Source of the DNA: Spirochaetaceae bacterium
Lineage (GTDB): Bacteria > Spirochaetota > Spirochaetia > DSM-27196 > Alkalispirochaetaceae
DNA: 64,000 nucleotides
NCBI GenBank assembly: GCA_007695175.1
Contig: REEH01000143.1
Location: 69,152-133,151, forward strand
Reading direction: 5' to 3'
The stretch's first letter is position 1, and the number at the start of each line of letters is the position of its first letter. Below the pieces are notes generated by a model. That model made no database searches. It saw only the letters and a list, made by a program, of their open reading frames with translations, and had not been told where the DNA came from. Shown here piece by piece: positions 56,216 through 63,934 of this stretch. The position numbers and the translations under genes are program-made.

Positions 56216-57526
56216 CTAGTAGAGGTAGCGGAATCCCAGTGCGAGGGTGGCCGACTCCGCACGGCCCCAGCCGTATACGCTGGTATCATCTCCGGCCTGG
56301 ACCGACACGAAGGCGAGCATGTGGAATCCCTGGAAAACGTTCCACGCTACGCCGCCGGTTATCTCGGCGGATGCATCGATCGGGGACACCAGGCCGCGAC
56401 CGATCACCTGCACCGTCCGACCCGCCCCCCATACCAGCTCCGGGTGCAGTTGCACCGCGTATCCGGCTTCAGGATTCCGGAGGTCGTTCCAGGCGCCGGC
56501 GGGGGTAATCAGCGCTTCCAGCCGCGCCGCCAGGGTATGGTCCCGGCCGATCGGGAAGAGATAAAACGCGCCGAGGCTGAGCAGGGAGTAGTCTTCCAGC
56601 ACGTGTCCAATGCGCCCGCGGCCGGGTGGGGGACCATCCTCCGGCAGATGCAGGGCAGCGGCACCGTAGAGATCCGCCCCGAGGCTTCCCTGCAGCGCGA
56701 TCGCGGTACGGTGCACCCCGGCGGAACCGTCATAGAGCCAGGAGGGTTCCACCGTGAGAGGGCCCGCGGAACTGTGCAGGCGCAATCCCGCTCGGGAGTC
56801 CGCCGCCGGCGCTACCGCGGTCGCCCCGTTGCCGGTGGTGCCGGTGGAGGGGCTGCCGTCCGGATCGTCCGGGTAGTCCTGGGCGGCATTCGCTGTCCCG
56901 CCCAGGCTCAGTTCGGGCAGGGGCGGCAAGGCGACCGCCTCCAGATACCCCAGCGCACCAACGGGGAAATACAGCGCGAGAAGCCACGTCGTCTCATCCC
57001 GCACATCCTCGGACCGGGTGAAGTCCGCGGTGCTCCGCCCGTCGGCGCCAAAGATCAGGTCCGCCGCGTTGAAAAGGGACCCCAATCCCCAACTGAGACG
57101 ATCCCTCCCGGTGGTGACGCGCATCGAGTATTCTTCGGTCAGGGGGAAACGGAACCGGATGCTCGCCCGGGGGACTTCAAGGAATGCCGGGGAGGACGCG
57201 CCGGAGGAGTCCTCCAGCAGCGTCAGGCGCAGCTGGAGCCGGGACTGGACGTTTCGGTCTCCGGCGGAGCGAAAGTCCACCGTTCCCCGGGTCAGACCGG
57301 TGAGACCCAGTTCCTCACCGGTCCAGACCGTAGCGGCGAAACTCTCGATCTCCGTCTGGACGCGCGTCTCCGCGCCGAGAACTCCCGCCCCGCCAAGGAG
57401 CAGTACCATTGCCGCCGCGGTCGTCGCGCCTCTCAAGGCGCCACGCACGACGCCACGGCCGGCCCCACGGCCGGCGCCACGCCCCGTCTCGAACGATGCC
57501 CGCTTCCTCTGCTCCAGCGTTACCAT
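56216..57526 (-). CDS. Putative outer-membrane beta-barrel protein with Arg/Gly-rich N-terminal region
   Basis: Ends ...LALGFRYLY (aromatic C-terminus typical of OMPs); alternating beta-strand-like pattern; N-terminus MVTLEQRKRASFETGRGAGRGAGRGVVRGALRG before the hydrophobic MVLLLGGAGVLGA. ATG 57526 overlaps the upstream gene by 7 nt. Confidence 0.5.
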   Translation of the reverse strand: MVTLEQRKRASFETGRGAGRGAGRGVVRGALRGATTAAAMVLLLGGAGVLGAETRVQTEIESFAATVWTGEELGLTGLTRGTVDFRSAGDRNVQSRLQLRLTLLEDSSGASSPAFLEVPRASIRFRFPLTEEYSMRVTTGRDRLSWGLGSLFNAADLIFGADGRSTADFTRSEDVRDETTWLLALYFPVGALGYLEAVALPPLPELSLGGTANAAQDYPDDPDGSPSTGTTGNGATAVAPAADSRAGLRLHSSAGPLTVEPSWLYDGSAGVHRTAIALQGSLGADLYGAAALHLPEDGPPPGRGRIGHVLEDYSLLSLGAFYLFPIGRDHTLAARLEALITPAGAWNDLRNPEAGYAVQLHPELVWGAGRTVQVIGRGLVSPIDASAEITGGVAWNVFQGFHMLAFVSVQAGDDTSVYGWGRAESATLALGFRYLY

Positions 57527-58368: not shown

Positions 58369-59598
58369 TCACTCCGCCCGCAGCGCCTCCACCGGCCGCA
58401 GCTTTGCCGCCCGTCGCGCCGAGGGGTAGGTGGATACCATTGCCACGGCCAGGCCGAAGAAGAACACCAGCACGGTGGATCGCACATTCAGCACGGGGTA
58501 GAGCACGCTGGAGAGATCCATCTCCACCATATCCATGGCGGAACCGAAGTCGATGCCGATCCTGGAGAGTGGAATCGTAATCGCCACGCCGATCACCACT
58601 CCGACAAAGGATCCGATCGCCCCGAGGTACGCGGACTCCAGGAAGAAGAGGCGCACCAGCTCCCCACCGTGCATCCCCATCGCCGCGAGGGTACCGATCT
58701 CCCGGGTCCGCTCGTGGATGATCATCATGGTGGTGCTGATGATCACCGTGCTGGCCAGCAGGAAGAAGATCAGTGCGACGATGTTGTACACGACGCCGGC
58801 TGTCCGCAGGTAGGAGTACCCACCGCTGATCCGCGTCCAGGGAACGACGCTGAGCTCCGTCCTCCCTGATTCTTCAAGGAACGACCGCACACCATCGGCG
58901 AACTCCACGGTGTCACCACCGACACTCTTCAAGAGAATCTCGCTCGCCGCACCGTCCATCCGCATGTACCGGTCCGCGTTCTCGATCGGAAGGATATACC
59001 CGCTGCTGTTGAGCTGCGGTACGGGGAAGTCAGCCAGGCCTACCACGTCCAGGGTGAACGCGTTGGACCCGCGCCGGCGGGTCTGGATCAGAAACGTGAC
59101 GATATCCCCCGTTCCGATGTCCAGATCCGAGGCCAGACCGCGTCCGAGGATCGCCTCGTTGGTCCCGGATCGTGGAAGGCGCCCCGCCGCGATGACTCGC
59201 TCGAGATCCTGGTATTCCTGCTCCCGTTCCAGATCGAGGCCCAGCCCCAGAGTAGCAAACTGCTGTTCACCCCGGAACGCTGCTCCGAGAACGCGAATGC
59301 GGGGACTCACCGTTCTCACCTCAGGGTGCGCGCGGAGCCGGTCCACCAGGTCCCGGTAGTCCCCCACCACGTACTGAACGGGATTCAGGTACTCGTACCG
59401 GTCAAATTCGGCGTGGCGCAGGCGCACTTCCCCGGCGTCCCAGTCCCAGGAGTTGGTCTGGATGTTCGTTTTAATCCCCTCAAAGAGGGAAAAGAAGATG
59501 GTGATCGAAGTGGCCGCTACCGCCAGGGCAAGGATCGAGAGCAGACTGCGTCGCTTGTTTCTGAATATGTTCCGCAAAGCGATTCCTGACAGTCTCAT
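58369..59598 (-). CDS. ABC transporter permease, FtsX/MacB-like (4 TM + large periplasmic domain), copy 1
   Basis: MRLSGIALRNIFRNKRRSLLSILALAVAATSITIF...; C-terminal FtsX domain; ATGA overlap with the upstream stop. Confidence 0.8.
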   Translation of the reverse strand: MRLSGIALRNIFRNKRRSLLSILALAVAATSITIFFSLFEGIKTNIQTNSWDWDAGEVRLRHAEFDRYEYLNPVQYVVGDYRDLVDRLRAHPEVRTVSPRIRVLGAAFRGEQQFATLGLGLDLEREQEYQDLERVIAAGRLPRSGTNEAILGRGLASDLDIGTGDIVTFLIQTRRRGSNAFTLDVVGLADFPVPQLNSSGYILPIENADRYMRMDGAASEILLKSVGGDTVEFADGVRSFLEESGRTELSVVPWTRISGGYSYLRTAGVVYNIVALIFFLLASTVIISTTMMIIHERTREIGTLAAMGMHGGELVRLFFLESAYLGAIGSFVGVVIGVAITIPLSRIGIDFGSAMDMVEMDLSSVLYPVLNVRSTVLVFFFGLAVAMVSTYPSARRAAKLRPVEALRAE

Positions 59599-60866
59599 AC
59601 ATGCCTCAGACAATCGGTAACGCTCTTCTTGAGAATCCGCCGGGTGGGAAAGATCGCCACCACCCCGGCGACCAGGACGGCGAAAACCGTGGCGCTCACC
59701 ATCGTTCCATAATTCCATACGCCGTACAGAACGCTGTCAAAGCGGTAGCCCGCAAAATCGATCTCCGACATGAGCCTGGAGTAATCGACTCCGTAGGTGA
59801 CCAGCAGCCCCGTGAAGACGCTGCCCAGAGCAAGACCGCCGATCGCGCCGAGAACGCCGATTCCCGCCGCTTCCAGGGAGAAGAGCAGGCGGATCTCCCT
59901 GTTATGAAGACCCAGGGACCGCAGCATCCCGATCTCCCGTTCGCGCTCAAGGACCGACATGAGCATCGTGTTGGAGACCCCCACGATCGCGATAATCGCC
60001 AGGAGAAAGAGCAGCAGGTTGGTAAACCCCTCCTCCATCTCCATCATCTCCGTGAACTCCTCGGTCATATCCGCGTAGGAAAGGGCAACGACAGGGCCGG
60101 CGCCGACCGCTTCGAGAACCCGCCGCGCCGGGGCAGGGTCCGCCGTGCCCGGTATCGCTTCCGGAAGCTTCAGGTGAATCGAGGTAACCGCCCCCTTCAT
60201 CTCCAGGTAGAGATCCGCCACGTCCAGCGGCAGGTGTACCTTGTTGCGGTCCACGTAGGGATTGGGAGACTCGTAGATTCCTGCCACCTCCAGTTCCAGG
60301 AACTGCCGGTACCCGTCGCGAGTCCGGGTGGTGACGCTCACGGGATACCCCACCTCCGCACCGAGCTGCTCCGCGAGCCACCGCCCCAGGACGATCTCCT
60401 CCCGGCCCGATTCCAGCCAGCGGCCCTCCACGATCGCCTCCCGCAGACGGAAAACCCGGGAATCAAGCTCCGGGTCCAGACCGGCAAAAACCATCGGAAC
60501 AGACCCATCCTCGGGGAAGGGATCGTAGTGCACGATCAGGTCTCCCCGGAACGTCGTGCGCGGAGCCGCGGGTATACCGGCCTCCTCGAGTACCCGCAGA
60601 AGCGCCTCCGGGTCCTCCACGAGACGGTCCAGGAGGTACCGGTGCCGCTCATCCCAGTATTCCGGCGCGGTAATCGCGGCGTTGCCGATCTCGAAATCCA
60701 CCAGGTTCCGGTCGATTTCGCTGATGAAACCCACCAGGATCGAGTCCATGCTCGTATAGATCGAGATACCTACCGCCATGGCGAGGGCGGTAACAACCGT
60801 CCGACGTCTGTGACGAGTCAGGTTCCTGAAGGCCAGGACGAAGAAGAATCGCGCTCGTCGTACCAT
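59595..60866 (-). CDS. ABC transporter permease, FtsX/MacB-like, copy 2
   Basis: MVRRARFFFVLAFRNLTRHRRRTVVTALAMAVGISIY...; TGATG overlap with the ATPase stop. Confidence 0.8.
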   Translation of the reverse strand: MVRRARFFFVLAFRNLTRHRRRTVVTALAMAVGISIYTSMDSILVGFISEIDRNLVDFEIGNAAITAPEYWDERHRYLLDRLVEDPEALLRVLEEAGIPAAPRTTFRGDLIVHYDPFPEDGSVPMVFAGLDPELDSRVFRLREAIVEGRWLESGREEIVLGRWLAEQLGAEVGYPVSVTTRTRDGYRQFLELEVAGIYESPNPYVDRNKVHLPLDVADLYLEMKGAVTSIHLKLPEAIPGTADPAPARRVLEAVGAGPVVALSYADMTEEFTEMMEMEEGFTNLLLFLLAIIAIVGVSNTMLMSVLEREREIGMLRSLGLHNREIRLLFSLEAAGIGVLGAIGGLALGSVFTGLLVTYGVDYSRLMSEIDFAGYRFDSVLYGVWNYGTMVSATVFAVLVAGVVAIFPTRRILKKSVTDCLRHV

Positions 60867-61549: not shown

Positions 61550-62700
61550 CGAGCGTTCTCCTCCCCACCGGCGGGACTGTCGCCGGTCGGACCTCGCTGG
61601 TCGTCCTCCCGATTCTGCATCGCCGCAAGCTTGTTCTGCAGCGCTACCAGTCCCACCGGGTGTCCCAGGTTCATCTGCTCCGCCGCGGAGGATGGTACCA
61701 GGACAACCGAGCCTTTGCTCTGACGCAGCGCGTCGTAGACCATGTTCATCGCCCGCAGCTGAAACGCCTGGGGGTTGTCCCGATAGTACTCGTCGGCGCG
61801 GCGCATCTTTTCCGCCAGCTGGATCTCCGTGTCGCCGAGAATGATCCGCGCCCGGTGCTCCCGGTCCGCCTGGGCGTGGCGGCTCATGGCGTCCTCCAGT
61901 TCCCCGGGAATCACGATGTCCGTAAACTCCACCGACAGAACGGTGATACCCCAGGGATTGGTCTTTGCGTCGAGAATCTTCTGCAGCTTCGCCCCCACCT
62001 GGTCGCGTTCGCTCAGGAGCTCCTCCAGATTATGCGAACCGATCGCCTCACGCAGGGCGGTCTGGGCGGAAAGCGTCACCGCCTCGAGGAAATCCTGCAC
62101 CTCCAGGACCGCCTTCTGGGCGTCCCAGATCATCCAGAAACAGATAGCATCCACGTGGACGGGAACGTTGTCCCGGCTCAGGGTGCGTTCCGCGCTGAAG
62201 TCGGTCACGCGAATACGCGTATCCACCCGGGCGGCAATGCGGTCGATGAAGGGGGGGAGCAGGAAGAGACCCGCCCCACGCACCCTGTGGAAGCGCCCCA
62301 GGCGCAGGATGACTGCCCGGTCCCAGTGGAGGAGCAGGTTCACCATCGCCGCCGGGAGAAGCGAAAGTGCGGGTACGGCGTACAGGATGGCCCGATCGGA
62401 CCCGCTCACGCTGTAAAGGACTGCCCAGCTCGCCATAAGCGCGATCACCAGCATCCCCCAGGTGGGAAGGGCAACCAGGAGGAGCGCCCCCAGGATCACC
62501 GCGTAAACGACTCCCTGAAACTCCTCGCCGGAGAGCGCGAAACCTGAAAGGTGCATCGCCCCGAACGCACCGGCACACACCACCGCCAGAAGCAGAAAGG
62601 AAAAAGTGGAAAACCGGAAGTCCCGCGGGATCACCCGGCGGGGAACGTTTTTTATCCGCGACACCCGGGGGTTGCGAAAGAGTCCCTGTAAACCCGTCAT
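61546..62700 (-). CDS. SPFH/band-7 (stomatin-prohibitin) family membrane protein
   Basis: Start MTGLQGLFRN... (ATG 62700). N-terminal TM segments. SPFH core ...VDAICFWMIWDAQKAV...LREAIGSHNLEELLSERDQVG... Coiled C-terminus. ATGA overlap with the ABC ATPase start. Confidence 0.75.
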   Translation of the reverse strand: MTGLQGLFRNPRVSRIKNVPRRVIPRDFRFSTFSFLLLAVVCAGAFGAMHLSGFALSGEEFQGVVYAVILGALLLVALPTWGMLVIALMASWAVLYSVSGSDRAILYAVPALSLLPAAMVNLLLHWDRAVILRLGRFHRVRGAGLFLLPPFIDRIAARVDTRIRVTDFSAERTLSRDNVPVHVDAICFWMIWDAQKAVLEVQDFLEAVTLSAQTALREAIGSHNLEELLSERDQVGAKLQKILDAKTNPWGITVLSVEFTDIVIPGELEDAMSRHAQADREHRARIILGDTEIQLAEKMRRADEYYRDNPQAFQLRAMNMVYDALRQSKGSVVLVPSSAAEQMNLGHPVGLVALQNKLAAMQNREDDQRGPTGDSPAGGEENAR

Positions 62701-62713
62701 AAAGACCTCCTGA

Positions 62714-63100
62714 TCATTCTCGCTCTCCCATTTCCCGGAGCTGGGCGATAATCTCCTCCAGGGAAAACCCGTAGGAACCGGCCTGGACGAGGGTCGACCG
62801 GCATAGCTCGGAGAGAATACGCTCCCGTTCCACCTCGGAAAATGAAATCTCCCGATCCGAGATGAACGTGCCGGTACCCTGCTGGGTGTTGACGATGCCC
62901 CGGATCTCCAGCTGGTTGTACGCCTTCGCCACTGTGTTGGGGTTGATCTGCAAGTCCACCGCAAGGCTTCGCACCGTAGGCAGCTGGTCGCCGGCGGCCA
63001 GGCGATCGCCGGCGATCGCCATCTCCACCTGGAGAATTATCTGCTTGTAATAGGGTATCCCGCTGTTGTTGTCGATTGTAAACCGGATTTCCCGCGCCAC
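62714..63100 (-). CDS. GntR-family transcriptional regulator, short YtrA-like subfamily
   Basis: 128 aa; N-terminal wHTH AAGDQLPTVRSLAVDLQINPNTVAKAYNQLEIRGIV; short C-terminal domain typical of YtrA. GTG start after GAGGAA. Confidence 0.8.
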   Translation of the reverse strand: MAREIRFTIDNNSGIPYYKQIILQVEMAIAGDRLAAGDQLPTVRSLAVDLQINPNTVAKAYNQLEIRGIVNTQQGTGTFISDREISFSEVERERILSELCRSTLVQAGSYGFSLEEIIAQLREMGERE

Positions 63101-63112
63101 GTCCTGTTCCTC

Positions 63113-63148
63113 TGTACTATTGTACTACATAAACAGTACAATAGTACA
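63113..63148. promoter_or_regulatory. Perfect inverted repeat TGTACTATTGTACT-N8-AGTACAATAGTACA (four GTAC cores), candidate operator of the YtrA-like repressor
   Basis: Read directly, 13 nt upstream of the gntR start. Overlaps a plausible -10 (TACTAT) with TTGCGT ~15 nt further upstream (minus sense). Confidence 0.55.
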
Positions 63149-63178
63149 GGAAAACTTTTTTACGCAATGGGTGCAGCG

Positions 63179-63934
63179 CTACAACTCAGCCACGATACAG
63201 AGGAGAAAAGAATCGTCTTCATCGAAAGGACTGCCCTCGTACCCGCCGTAGGTCCTGATACCGGTGAAGCCCGCCGCCCGAGCGGCCGCAACCAGCTCGT
63301 CCCGACGCAGCGTGAGGAGCGGCGTCGTGGCACTGACCGACTCCTCTCCCTCCCGTTCCAGTTCAACGTGAAAGACCGTCGTCCCCGGCGTACTCGAAGG
63401 CCGGTATTCGCGCCGCATGGTAATACCCGTCCGCTCCACGGGCGGTAACGGACGGGCTCTCTCCTCTCCACCCTCCGGGGGTGCAAACCGGGCGAAGTTG
63501 ATCACCTGAACAACCAGCCTGCCCGTTCCCGACGATCCGGGGGAGGCCAGCACTCGAGCCGCTTCCCGGAAAAAGATATCAACCGCTCCGCGATCGCTCA
63601 GGTGGGGCAGGGAGTTTCCGATGCAGAACATGCCGCCCCAGGGAATGGAAACGGCAGCGGTTATGGCCGGGATATCCTCCAGGGAACCAACCAGAAAGCG
63701 ACCATCCCGTCCGCAGCATCGGGCACGAGCGATCATCGCCTGGTCGGCATCGAATCCGACAACCGACATGCCCCGGGAGGCGAGTGCGGCTGTGTAATTA
63801 CCGGTTCCGCAGGCGGCATCGACGATAACCCCCGACACACCGCCAAAGGTTTCCTCCAGGAAATCGACGGTTTCATTTTCCGCCGGAAACAGCGTGTCGT
63901 AATACTGGGCCAGAATACTGTAGAAACTGCTCAT
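63179..63934 (-). CDS. Class I SAM-dependent methyltransferase
   Basis: VIVDAACGTGNYTAALA (motif I), VGFDADQAM (motif II-like). Confidence 0.7.
   Translation of the reverse strand: MSSFYSILAQYYDTLFPAENETVDFLEETFGGVSGVIVDAACGTGNYTAALASRGMSVVGFDADQAMIARARCCGRDGRFLVGSLEDIPAITAAVSIPWGGMFCIGNSLPHLSDRGAVDIFFREAARVLASPGSSGTGRLVVQVINFARFAPPEGGEERARPLPPVERTGITMRREYRPSSTPGTTVFHVELEREGEESVSATTPLLTLRRDELVAAARAAGFTGIRTYGGYEGSPFDEDDSFLLCIVAEL

Follow-up and report, generated by a model that had tools for sequence, protein, structure and literature searches.

A palindrome upstream of a YtrA-type regulator gene in a spirochaete as the probable operator of a conserved ABC-transporter operon

A repressor that binds a palindrome over its own promoter is an ordinary, textbook bacterial switch, and no new mechanism is proposed here. 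Within the GntR family, the YtrA subfamily is set apart by a reduced C-terminal domain of about 50 amino acids (aa) with only two α-helices (Rigali 2002, as summarised in PMC4494728). Autoregulation is common in this subfamily, most YtrA regulons consisting of a single ATP-binding cassette (ABC) operon, and YtrA motifs are long palindromes with distal GT/AC (PMC4494728). The YtrA protein of Bacillus subtilis binds AGTGTA-13 bp-TACACT before its own ABC operon and also a site upstream of ywoBCD (Salzberg et al., 2011, as quoted in PMC8060467). In the archaeon-type promoter setting of Sulfolobus acidocaldarius, the core motif of YtrA lies over the transcription start, and mutations demonstrated that flanking secondary half-sites contribute to binding (PMC6746942). 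The recognition helices of CGL2612 from Corynebacterium glutamicum are ~62 Å apart, or roughly two DNA turns, according to the account in PMC6746942. MbrR, from the MbrR-MbrAB system of Streptococcus salivarius, is a YtrA-family repressor reported to be sequestered by its cognate ABC ATPase (2026 preprint, bioRxiv 10.64898/2026.02.18.706565). A published comparison of GntR motifs lists no Spirochaetes (PMC4494728), and our literature search on spirochaete YtrA-type GntR regulators found none. Here we describe a perfect palindrome that lies directly upstream of a gene for a short GntR-type regulator in a 64,000-nucleotide (nt) stretch of DNA from a Spirochaetaceae bacterium (GenBank assembly GCA_007695175.1, contig REEH01000143.1, positions 69,152 to 133,151 of the forward strand); this whole stretch is referred to below as the window.

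Based on sequence comparison, the palindrome is very probably the operator of a GntR repressor of the YtrA subfamily, whose gene follows directly downstream on the minus strand. Five lines of evidence argue for this assignment, namely a phylogenetic footprint among spirochaetes, a motif-to-gene test in metagenomes, the agreement of the protein with what is known of the YtrA subfamily, the overlap of the box with the predicted promoter or transcription-start region in relatives, and the similarity of the box to that of B. subtilis. The elements in question are the following.

63112..63149, no strand: complete 38-bp palindrome, the proposed composite operator, with 15-nt arms, an 8-nt spacer and four GTAC cores

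63119..63142, no strand: putative primary (inner) YtrA box ATTGTACT-N8-AGTACAAT, of the form GTAC-N10-GTAC, which fits the family consensus and is the sole match to the position weight matrix (PWM) in the window

63113..63118, no strand: putative outer auxiliary half-site TGTACT, gene-proximal, 8 bp out of register from the inner core

63143..63148, no strand: putative outer auxiliary half-site AGTACA, on the promoter side, overlapping both candidate -10 hexamers

62714..63100, minus strand: ytrA-like regulator gene, 128 aa, GTG start at 63100, encoding a GntR winged helix-turn-helix (wHTH) domain and two C-terminal helices

63108..63112, minus strand: Shine-Dalgarno sequence GAGGA of the regulator gene, read from the sequence and abutting the palindrome

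Positions 63113-63148 read TGTACTATTGTACT-ACATAAAC-AGTACAATAGTACA. An initial annotation of this DNA had described them as a perfect 14-N8-14 palindrome; the palindrome is real and its sequence is as given there, the one correction being that the perfect arms measure 15 nt rather than 14 (63112-63126 and 63135-63149, around the 8-nt spacer). All four GTAC cores of that description were located in the sequence (63114-63117, 63122-63125, 63136-63139 and 63144-63147), and the reported distance of 13 nt to the GTG codon agrees with an edge at 63113 and a start at 63100. Among perfect inverted repeats with a loop of at most 20 nt, this is the longest in the window, the next best having 11-nt arms. 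When windows were simulated with a first-order Markov model, arms of 15 nt were reached in 0 of 300 and arms of 14 nt in 2 of 300; the G+C content of the window is 60%. A mismatch search of the 64 kb for other copies of the 14-mer arm returned only the two arms themselves, with no excess over chance.

The footprint set comprised 80 spirochaete loci, collected by a genome scan with a homologue alignment, whose proteins are 61-81% identical to the window regulator. Of the 80 loci, 79 have a site GTA[CT]-N10-[GA]TAC no more than 250 nt ahead of the regulator gene, compared with only 16 sites in the other 426 kb, and the box is enriched about 1000-fold upstream of the regulator relative to the rest of the same loci. 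When sites are counted by spacer length, a sharp maximum is seen at N=10 (79 upstream, 16 elsewhere). The family consensus derived from the count matrix, TATTGTACTA-N6-TAGTACAAT, matches the inner 24 bp of the window palindrome at 63119-63142. Box positions that lie outside the selection pattern carry 1.1-2.0 bits (TATT/TA around the left core, TA/AAT around the right core); values do not exceed 0.6 bits in the six bases at the center, one of them at 1.0 bit excepted, or 0.4 bits in the flanks. The PWM, which was derived from the relatives, has a single site in the 64-kb window, with a score of 31.1 at 63118-63143 and nothing else scoring 5 or more; a second site in the window, which would mark a further regulon member, was thus not found. 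The box is a palindrome of about 24 bp with distal GT/AC that is conserved upstream of orthologous operons, and it follows the GntR consensus NyGTNxACNy. Its position relative to the regulator gene and the promoter is kept across 79 loci from many spirochaete genera.

We then approached the association from the side of the motif. The exact motif ATTGTACTA-N6-TAGTACAAT was searched in a metagenome collection and was found in at least 120 stretches, of which 17 were too near a contig end and 103 were testable. Among the matches listed, 80 of the 103 testable copies have a GntR homologue that starts no more than 250 nt away, and these homologues are 29-71% identical (median 49.5%). With GntR homologues beside these copies and several of the rest upstream of ABC, permease or LolA-like genes, the box appears to be used by a family of YtrA-type ABC-exporter regulators that is wider than the spirochaete orthologues. 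The initial annotation had put the palindrome forward as a strong candidate for the autoregulatory operator of the adjacent YtrA-like regulator, and this proposal is supported by both counts, 79 of 80 loci and 80 of 103 listed copies, as well as by the YtrA-type character of the protein.

Copies of the exact box for which no adjacent GntR gene was detectable were found directly upstream of ABC ATPase genes (L093 4131, L144 2288, L159 1313 and L179 1498), of a MacB/FtsX-type permease gene (L156 1249) and of a LolA-like gene (L087 5069), and other GntR-less copies precede genes for small membrane proteins. From their sequence context, separate transporter operons may be part of the regulon in some organisms. 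A contig from a termite-gut metagenome (L161 1-300) has a tandem array of about five repeats of ~56 nt, each with a box, and in two further termite-gut contigs (L131 875-923, where the box is doubled, and L178 1343-1366) the box stands at the centre of a much larger inverted repeat. No regulator gene is near any of these three, which may represent parts of a mobile element or of a replication origin.

The regulator itself is a YtrA-type GntR protein. Residues 18-80 match the GntR wHTH family PF00392 of Pfam (E 5.1e-16, 58.5 bits against a cutoff of 27). In an AlphaFold2 (AF2) model with a mean predicted local distance difference test score (pLDDT) of 80, the wHTH comprises helices 17-30, 43-50 and 54-66 and a β-hairpin wing at 70-79, and residues 81-128 form exactly two helices, 89-109 and 114-127. 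Full-length matches in the PDB include 3by6 (E 3e-18, query 16-119), 4r1h, 4ham, 3neu, the Sulfolobus YtrA structure 6sbs (E 4e-9) and C. glutamicum CGL2612 (2du9/2ek5; query 15-125, E 1e-5). The protein thus combines a wHTH, a two-helix C-terminal domain, full-length similarity to YtrA-type proteins and a neighborhood of ABC-transporter genes. Its DNA-reading segments TVRSLA, NPNTVA and QGTGTF are invariant among 30 homologues, and we match them to the invariant core of the box. The protein is identical to that of a Spirochaetaceae metagenome-assembled genome. Upstream of its gene, loci L001-L003 have AGGAG at the place equivalent to the Shine-Dalgarno sequence of the window. Within the coding region (…AGDRLAAGD…), GGCGATCGCC occurs twice in tandem at 63001-63020, each copy being a 10-nt palindrome that contains GCGATCGC.

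The locus shares its general architecture with the B. subtilis ytrGABCDEF operon, in which a short GntR/YtrA-type repressor likewise heads an ABC-transporter operon in an autoregulatory arrangement. Both boxes are long palindromes with distal TGTA/TACA, AGTGTA-N13-TACACT in B. subtilis and ATTGTA-N12-TACAAT here. In contrast to B. subtilis, the spirochaete half-site has a different sequence, the spacer is one base shorter, and the window carries two extra perfect half-sites phased by 8 bp; the spirochaete operon, that of a diderm, also differs in content, with genes for an SPFH protein, a transporter of the MacB-type ABC class and a protein resembling LolA. The Sulfolobus system resembles the window in having a core palindrome, over the start there and over the predicted start here, with secondary half-sites on both sides (an inverted repeat of ~32 bp, compared with 38 bp here), and probably also in its very small regulon, which includes its own operon encoding membrane proteins. 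It differs in its compact 14-bp core, compact dimer and B recognition element (BRE)/TATA promoter, whereas the spirochaete primary box spans 24 bp, as in bacterial YtrA proteins. The structural prototype of the bacterial YtrA proteins, C. glutamicum CGL2612, has the same wHTH and two-helix dimerization module; its sequence similarity to the window protein is low. By analogy, its helix separation of 62 Å would be compatible with the half-site centers of ATTGTA-N12-TACAAT, which are ~18 bp apart. The streptococcal MbrR-MbrAB is a Gram-positive bacteriocin-resistance system and in that respect unlike the present one, but there too a YtrA-family repressor binds a palindromic motif within the promoter that drives its own ABC-transporter operon, and the system offers a possible route of induction without a ligand pocket. 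Sequestration by the ATPase is, on this analogy, a plausible route of induction here.

The relation of the box to promoter elements was assessed in the relatives and in the window, for which the candidates are listed below.

63162..63167, minus strand: candidate -35 hexamer TTGCGT, 11 nt past the methyltransferase stop codon

63138..63143, minus strand: preferred candidate -10 hexamer TATTGT, 18 nt from TTGCGT, placed by comparison with relatives

63141..63146, minus strand: initially annotated candidate -10 hexamer TACTAT, 15 nt from TTGCGT (a short spacing), missed by a promoter scan

In 52 of the 79 loci, a TTGACA-like -35 hexamer (at least 5 of 6 bases) begins exactly 35 nt before the left core, and in 4 others the distance is 34 nt. 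A spacer of 17 nt separates this hexamer from a TAnnnT, which puts the box at about +1 to +22, right over the expected start. A second layout was found in 9 loci (L026, L041, L042, L044, L047, L051, L070, L075 and L077), where TTGACA begins 8 or 9 nt ahead of the left core, the 17-nt spacer is taken up by the box and TACAAT, from the right half-site, serves as the -10. Both layouts are classic designs for steric repression. Candidate promoters in the clade of the window read TTGCAT-N17-TATTGT in L001 and L002, TTGCCA-N17-TATTGT in Spirochaeta africana (CP003282) and TTGCGT-N18-TATTGT in the window, the TTGCAT of L001 and L002 standing at the same place as the TTGCGT of the window. All four have TATTGT where the outer half-site meets the inner one. 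Both candidate -10 hexamers of the window fall inside the promoter-side arm. The hexamers and the ~15-nt spacing of the initial annotation, and the overlap with the palindrome, are as it described them; its choice of TACTAT is replaced here, since that hexamer is only 15 nt from TTGCGT, and the sequence comparison makes TATTGT the more likely -10. With TATTGT, transcription is predicted to start near 63131, at the center of the palindrome, and the composite site would extend from about -18 to +20. A TACAAT -10 in the gene-proximal arm was rejected for the window: GTACTA, at the corresponding -35 position, has 2 of 6 matches, and transcription would begin within the Shine-Dalgarno sequence.

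The outer cores of the palindrome have a narrower distribution than the inner box. The full four-core form GTAC-N4-GTAC-N10-GTAC-N4-GTAC is common to L001-L005 and L035, whose proteins are 64-81% identical to that of the window. In S. africana (L081 7937-7990), the palindrome is perfect with 17-nt arms, TATTGTTCTATTGTACT-N8-AGTACAATAGAACAATA, the outer cores are degenerate (GTTC), and a further GTGTACTA half-site upstream results in an 8-bp-phased array of three forward and two reverse half-sites. Across the loci, extra half-sites are phased by 8 bp against the primary cores, of which the right one is at +14, forward TGTAYT occurring at -8, -16 and -24 and reverse ARTACA at +6 and +22; the copy at -16 overlaps the -10 hexamer (GTAC/TAnnnT). 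Auxiliary half-sites beside primary GntR-family sites have been noted statistically (Suvorova et al., PMC4494728), and we read the outer cores of the window as auxiliary sites on the strength of these statistics and of the Sulfolobus YtrA mutations. Judged from sequence, then, the inner 24 bp appear to be the family-wide primary operator and the outer GTAC cores auxiliary half-sites, with the four-core form present in some relatives only. The phasing might reflect higher-order binding, in which several YtrA dimers would sit co-operatively along or around the promoter on different helix faces and the ATPase or the SPFH protein would capture the repressor, an elaboration that we consider rather unlikely. 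In L004, ~48 nt upstream of the match start, a symmetric double change was observed between the outer and inner cores (TATT to CATT and AATA to AATG), which leaves the palindrome perfect; it is a single event, and it fits symmetric protein recognition as well as base pairing.

The palindrome is situated in a 78-nt gap between two minus-strand genes, the regulator gene and that of an upstream methyltransferase, and the regulator gene is followed by six others, as listed below.

63179..63934, minus strand: methyltransferase gene, upstream, 251 aa

61546..62700, minus strand: SPFH/Band 7 membrane protein gene, ATG at 62700, 13 nt past the regulator stop codon

60866..61549, minus strand: ABC transporter ATPase gene, with a 4-nt overlap with the SPFH stop codon

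59595..60869, minus strand: MacB_PCD/FtsX permease gene 1, with a 4-nt overlap with the ATPase stop codon

58369..59598, minus strand: MacB_PCD/FtsX permease gene 2, likely start ATG 59598, overlapping the permease 1 stop codon

57520..58317, minus strand: LolA_like/TP_0789-like gene of lipoprotein-sorting type

56216..57526, minus strand: 436-aa open reading frame (ORF), overlapping the LolA-like stop codon by 7 nt

The longest ORF of permease 2 starts at 59718 and would overlap the permease 1 gene by 124 nt. The ATG at 59598 is the likelier start; it gives 409 aa, as in the S. africana homologue, and a 4-nt overlap of the ATGA type with the preceding stop codon. The 436-aa ORF (56216-57526) has no Pfam match, nor has the 413-aa gene in the same position of S. 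africana, and the operon probably ends with this gene, which would be conserved but uncharacterised. A literature search on TP0789 yielded nothing useful. By tblastn, 79 of the 80 loci have SPFH after the regulator, 72 have the ABC ATPase and 71 have the permease, the shortfalls below 80 being at least partly due to short flanks; S. africana has the same seven-gene order. The methyltransferase upstream in the window was found by tblastn in 0 of the 80 orthologous loci. Since synteny is kept with the operon and not with the methyltransferase, the box belongs to the regulator operon rather than to the upstream gene. The tight or overlapping gene junctions, together with the conserved synteny, suggest that the palindrome would control the whole operon.

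Several points weigh against an operator at this position. The core positions of the aligned boxes are invariant partly by construction, because the sites were picked with the pattern. A scan for consensus σ70 promoters over 62600-63600, at a threshold of 9 of 12, found no site in that region; the window hexamers are weak, with 3 of 6 matches for TTGCGT and 4 of 6 for TATTGT; and, compared with most relatives, the clade of the window has its box shifted upstream by ~7 bp with respect to the candidate -10, which makes the geometry less certain. Moreover, the full sequence, if transcribed, is predicted to fold as a 16-bp stem (-36.4 kcal/mol, z = -5.3), and an intergenic palindrome that follows a gene on the same strand could also function as RNA. 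It might be a hairpin that terminates or processes the methyltransferase transcript, or a stem-loop in the 5' leader that affects the stability or translation of the regulator mRNA, as its location between two same-strand genes, its end at the Shine-Dalgarno sequence and its listing as terminator-like on the plus strand, with a T-run following, would allow. We regard such an RNA element as highly improbable. Every perfect palindrome has a stable predicted fold as a matter of course, which does not help to tell a DNA site from an RNA structure. On the minus strand, to which both flanking genes belong, the stem is followed by GAGGAACAGG without a U-tract, the plus strand has no gene to terminate, and the stem is A+T-rich, with 5 G-C pairs of 16. 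The main variable pair of the box, the 4th base of the left core and the 1st base of the right core, is C/G in 43 of the 79 loci, C/A in 21, T/G in 10 and T/A in 5. About 5 T/A would be expected if the two sides were independent, so there is no sign of compensatory change, and 21 loci would have a C-A mismatch. Because the half-sites vary independently, selection acts on the sequence of each half-site and not on pairing. What is conserved is the sequence of the box itself, with a variable center; in most relatives the -10 is upstream of the box, so that transcription would begin at the box or within it and the transcript would lack part of the hairpin. In L003, a canonical GC-rich terminator directly precedes the palindrome, the upstream methyltransferase gene is not conserved, and no Rfam family was matched, the best hit being a microRNA model (E = 0.99, 20 bits against a gathering score of 100). 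The terminator or RNA-hairpin reading was rejected for want of a U-tract on the coding strand and of covariation.

A different possibility is that the palindrome is a genuine operator that is bound by another GntR-family or global regulator encoded elsewhere, and the roughly 20% of testable metagenomic motif copies, among the matches listed, that have no adjacent GntR homologue would be in keeping with it. We nevertheless hold it to be very unlikely, given that the box co-occurs with the regulator gene in both the orthologous loci and the listed metagenomic copies, that the rule in the YtrA subfamily is autoregulation through a single site before the regulator's own ABC operon (PMC4494728), that the geometry of the box resembles that of the B. 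subtilis YtrA box, and that the DNA-reading residues are invariant alongside the invariant core. The palindrome could also be a product of chance, or a relic of a mobile element (terminal inverted repeats, a recombination site), with no regulatory role, and the copies in L161, L131 and L178, which lie in tandem arrays or larger inverted repeats with no regulator gene near, do recall such elements. The probability of this is negligible: arms of 15 nt did not arise in the simulations, the window has one copy, and the position is conserved across 79 loci. These conservation data effectively refute an origin by chance or from a mobile relic.

With binding by the adjacent YtrA-type repressor as the preferred assignment, the following mechanism can be proposed. 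A repressor dimer would recognize the inner 24-bp ATTGTA-N12-TACAAT (63119-63142), with one wHTH per half-site, and the outer GTAC half-sites (63113-63118 and 63143-63148), 8 bp from the inner ones, may add affinity or recruit further dimers. Together, the sites would cover the -10 region (TATTGT or TACTAT), the predicted start at ~63131 and the early leader, such that bound repressor would block RNA polymerase. This block would autoregulate the regulator along with the presumably co-transcribed SPFH protein, ABC ATPase, two MacB-type permeases, LolA-like protein and unknown ORF. The inducing signal could be envelope or transport stress, and it might be relayed through sequestration of the repressor by its cognate ABC ATPase, a mechanism reported for MbrR. 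Physical binding, repression as opposed to activation, the promoter hexamers and start in the window, and co-transcription are points that we infer, as are the stoichiometry at the four cores and the nature of the inducing signal.

The analysis converts an anonymous palindrome into a testable regulatory assignment, namely a spirochaete-wide YtrA box, TATTGTACTA-N6-TAGTACAAT, before a conserved operon. The genes of this operon (SPFH, the MacB-type ABC transporter and the LolA/TP_0789-like gene) likely serve in envelope or lipoprotein handling, and the box offers a means of predicting which genes belong to the regulon in spirochaete genomes. The 8-bp-phased half-sites provide a data point on how YtrA repressors that have no ligand pocket may assemble on DNA and be released from it. 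If true, capture of the repressor by the ATPase or the SPFH protein in diderm spirochaetes would extend the transporter sequestration proposed for the Gram-positive MbrR.

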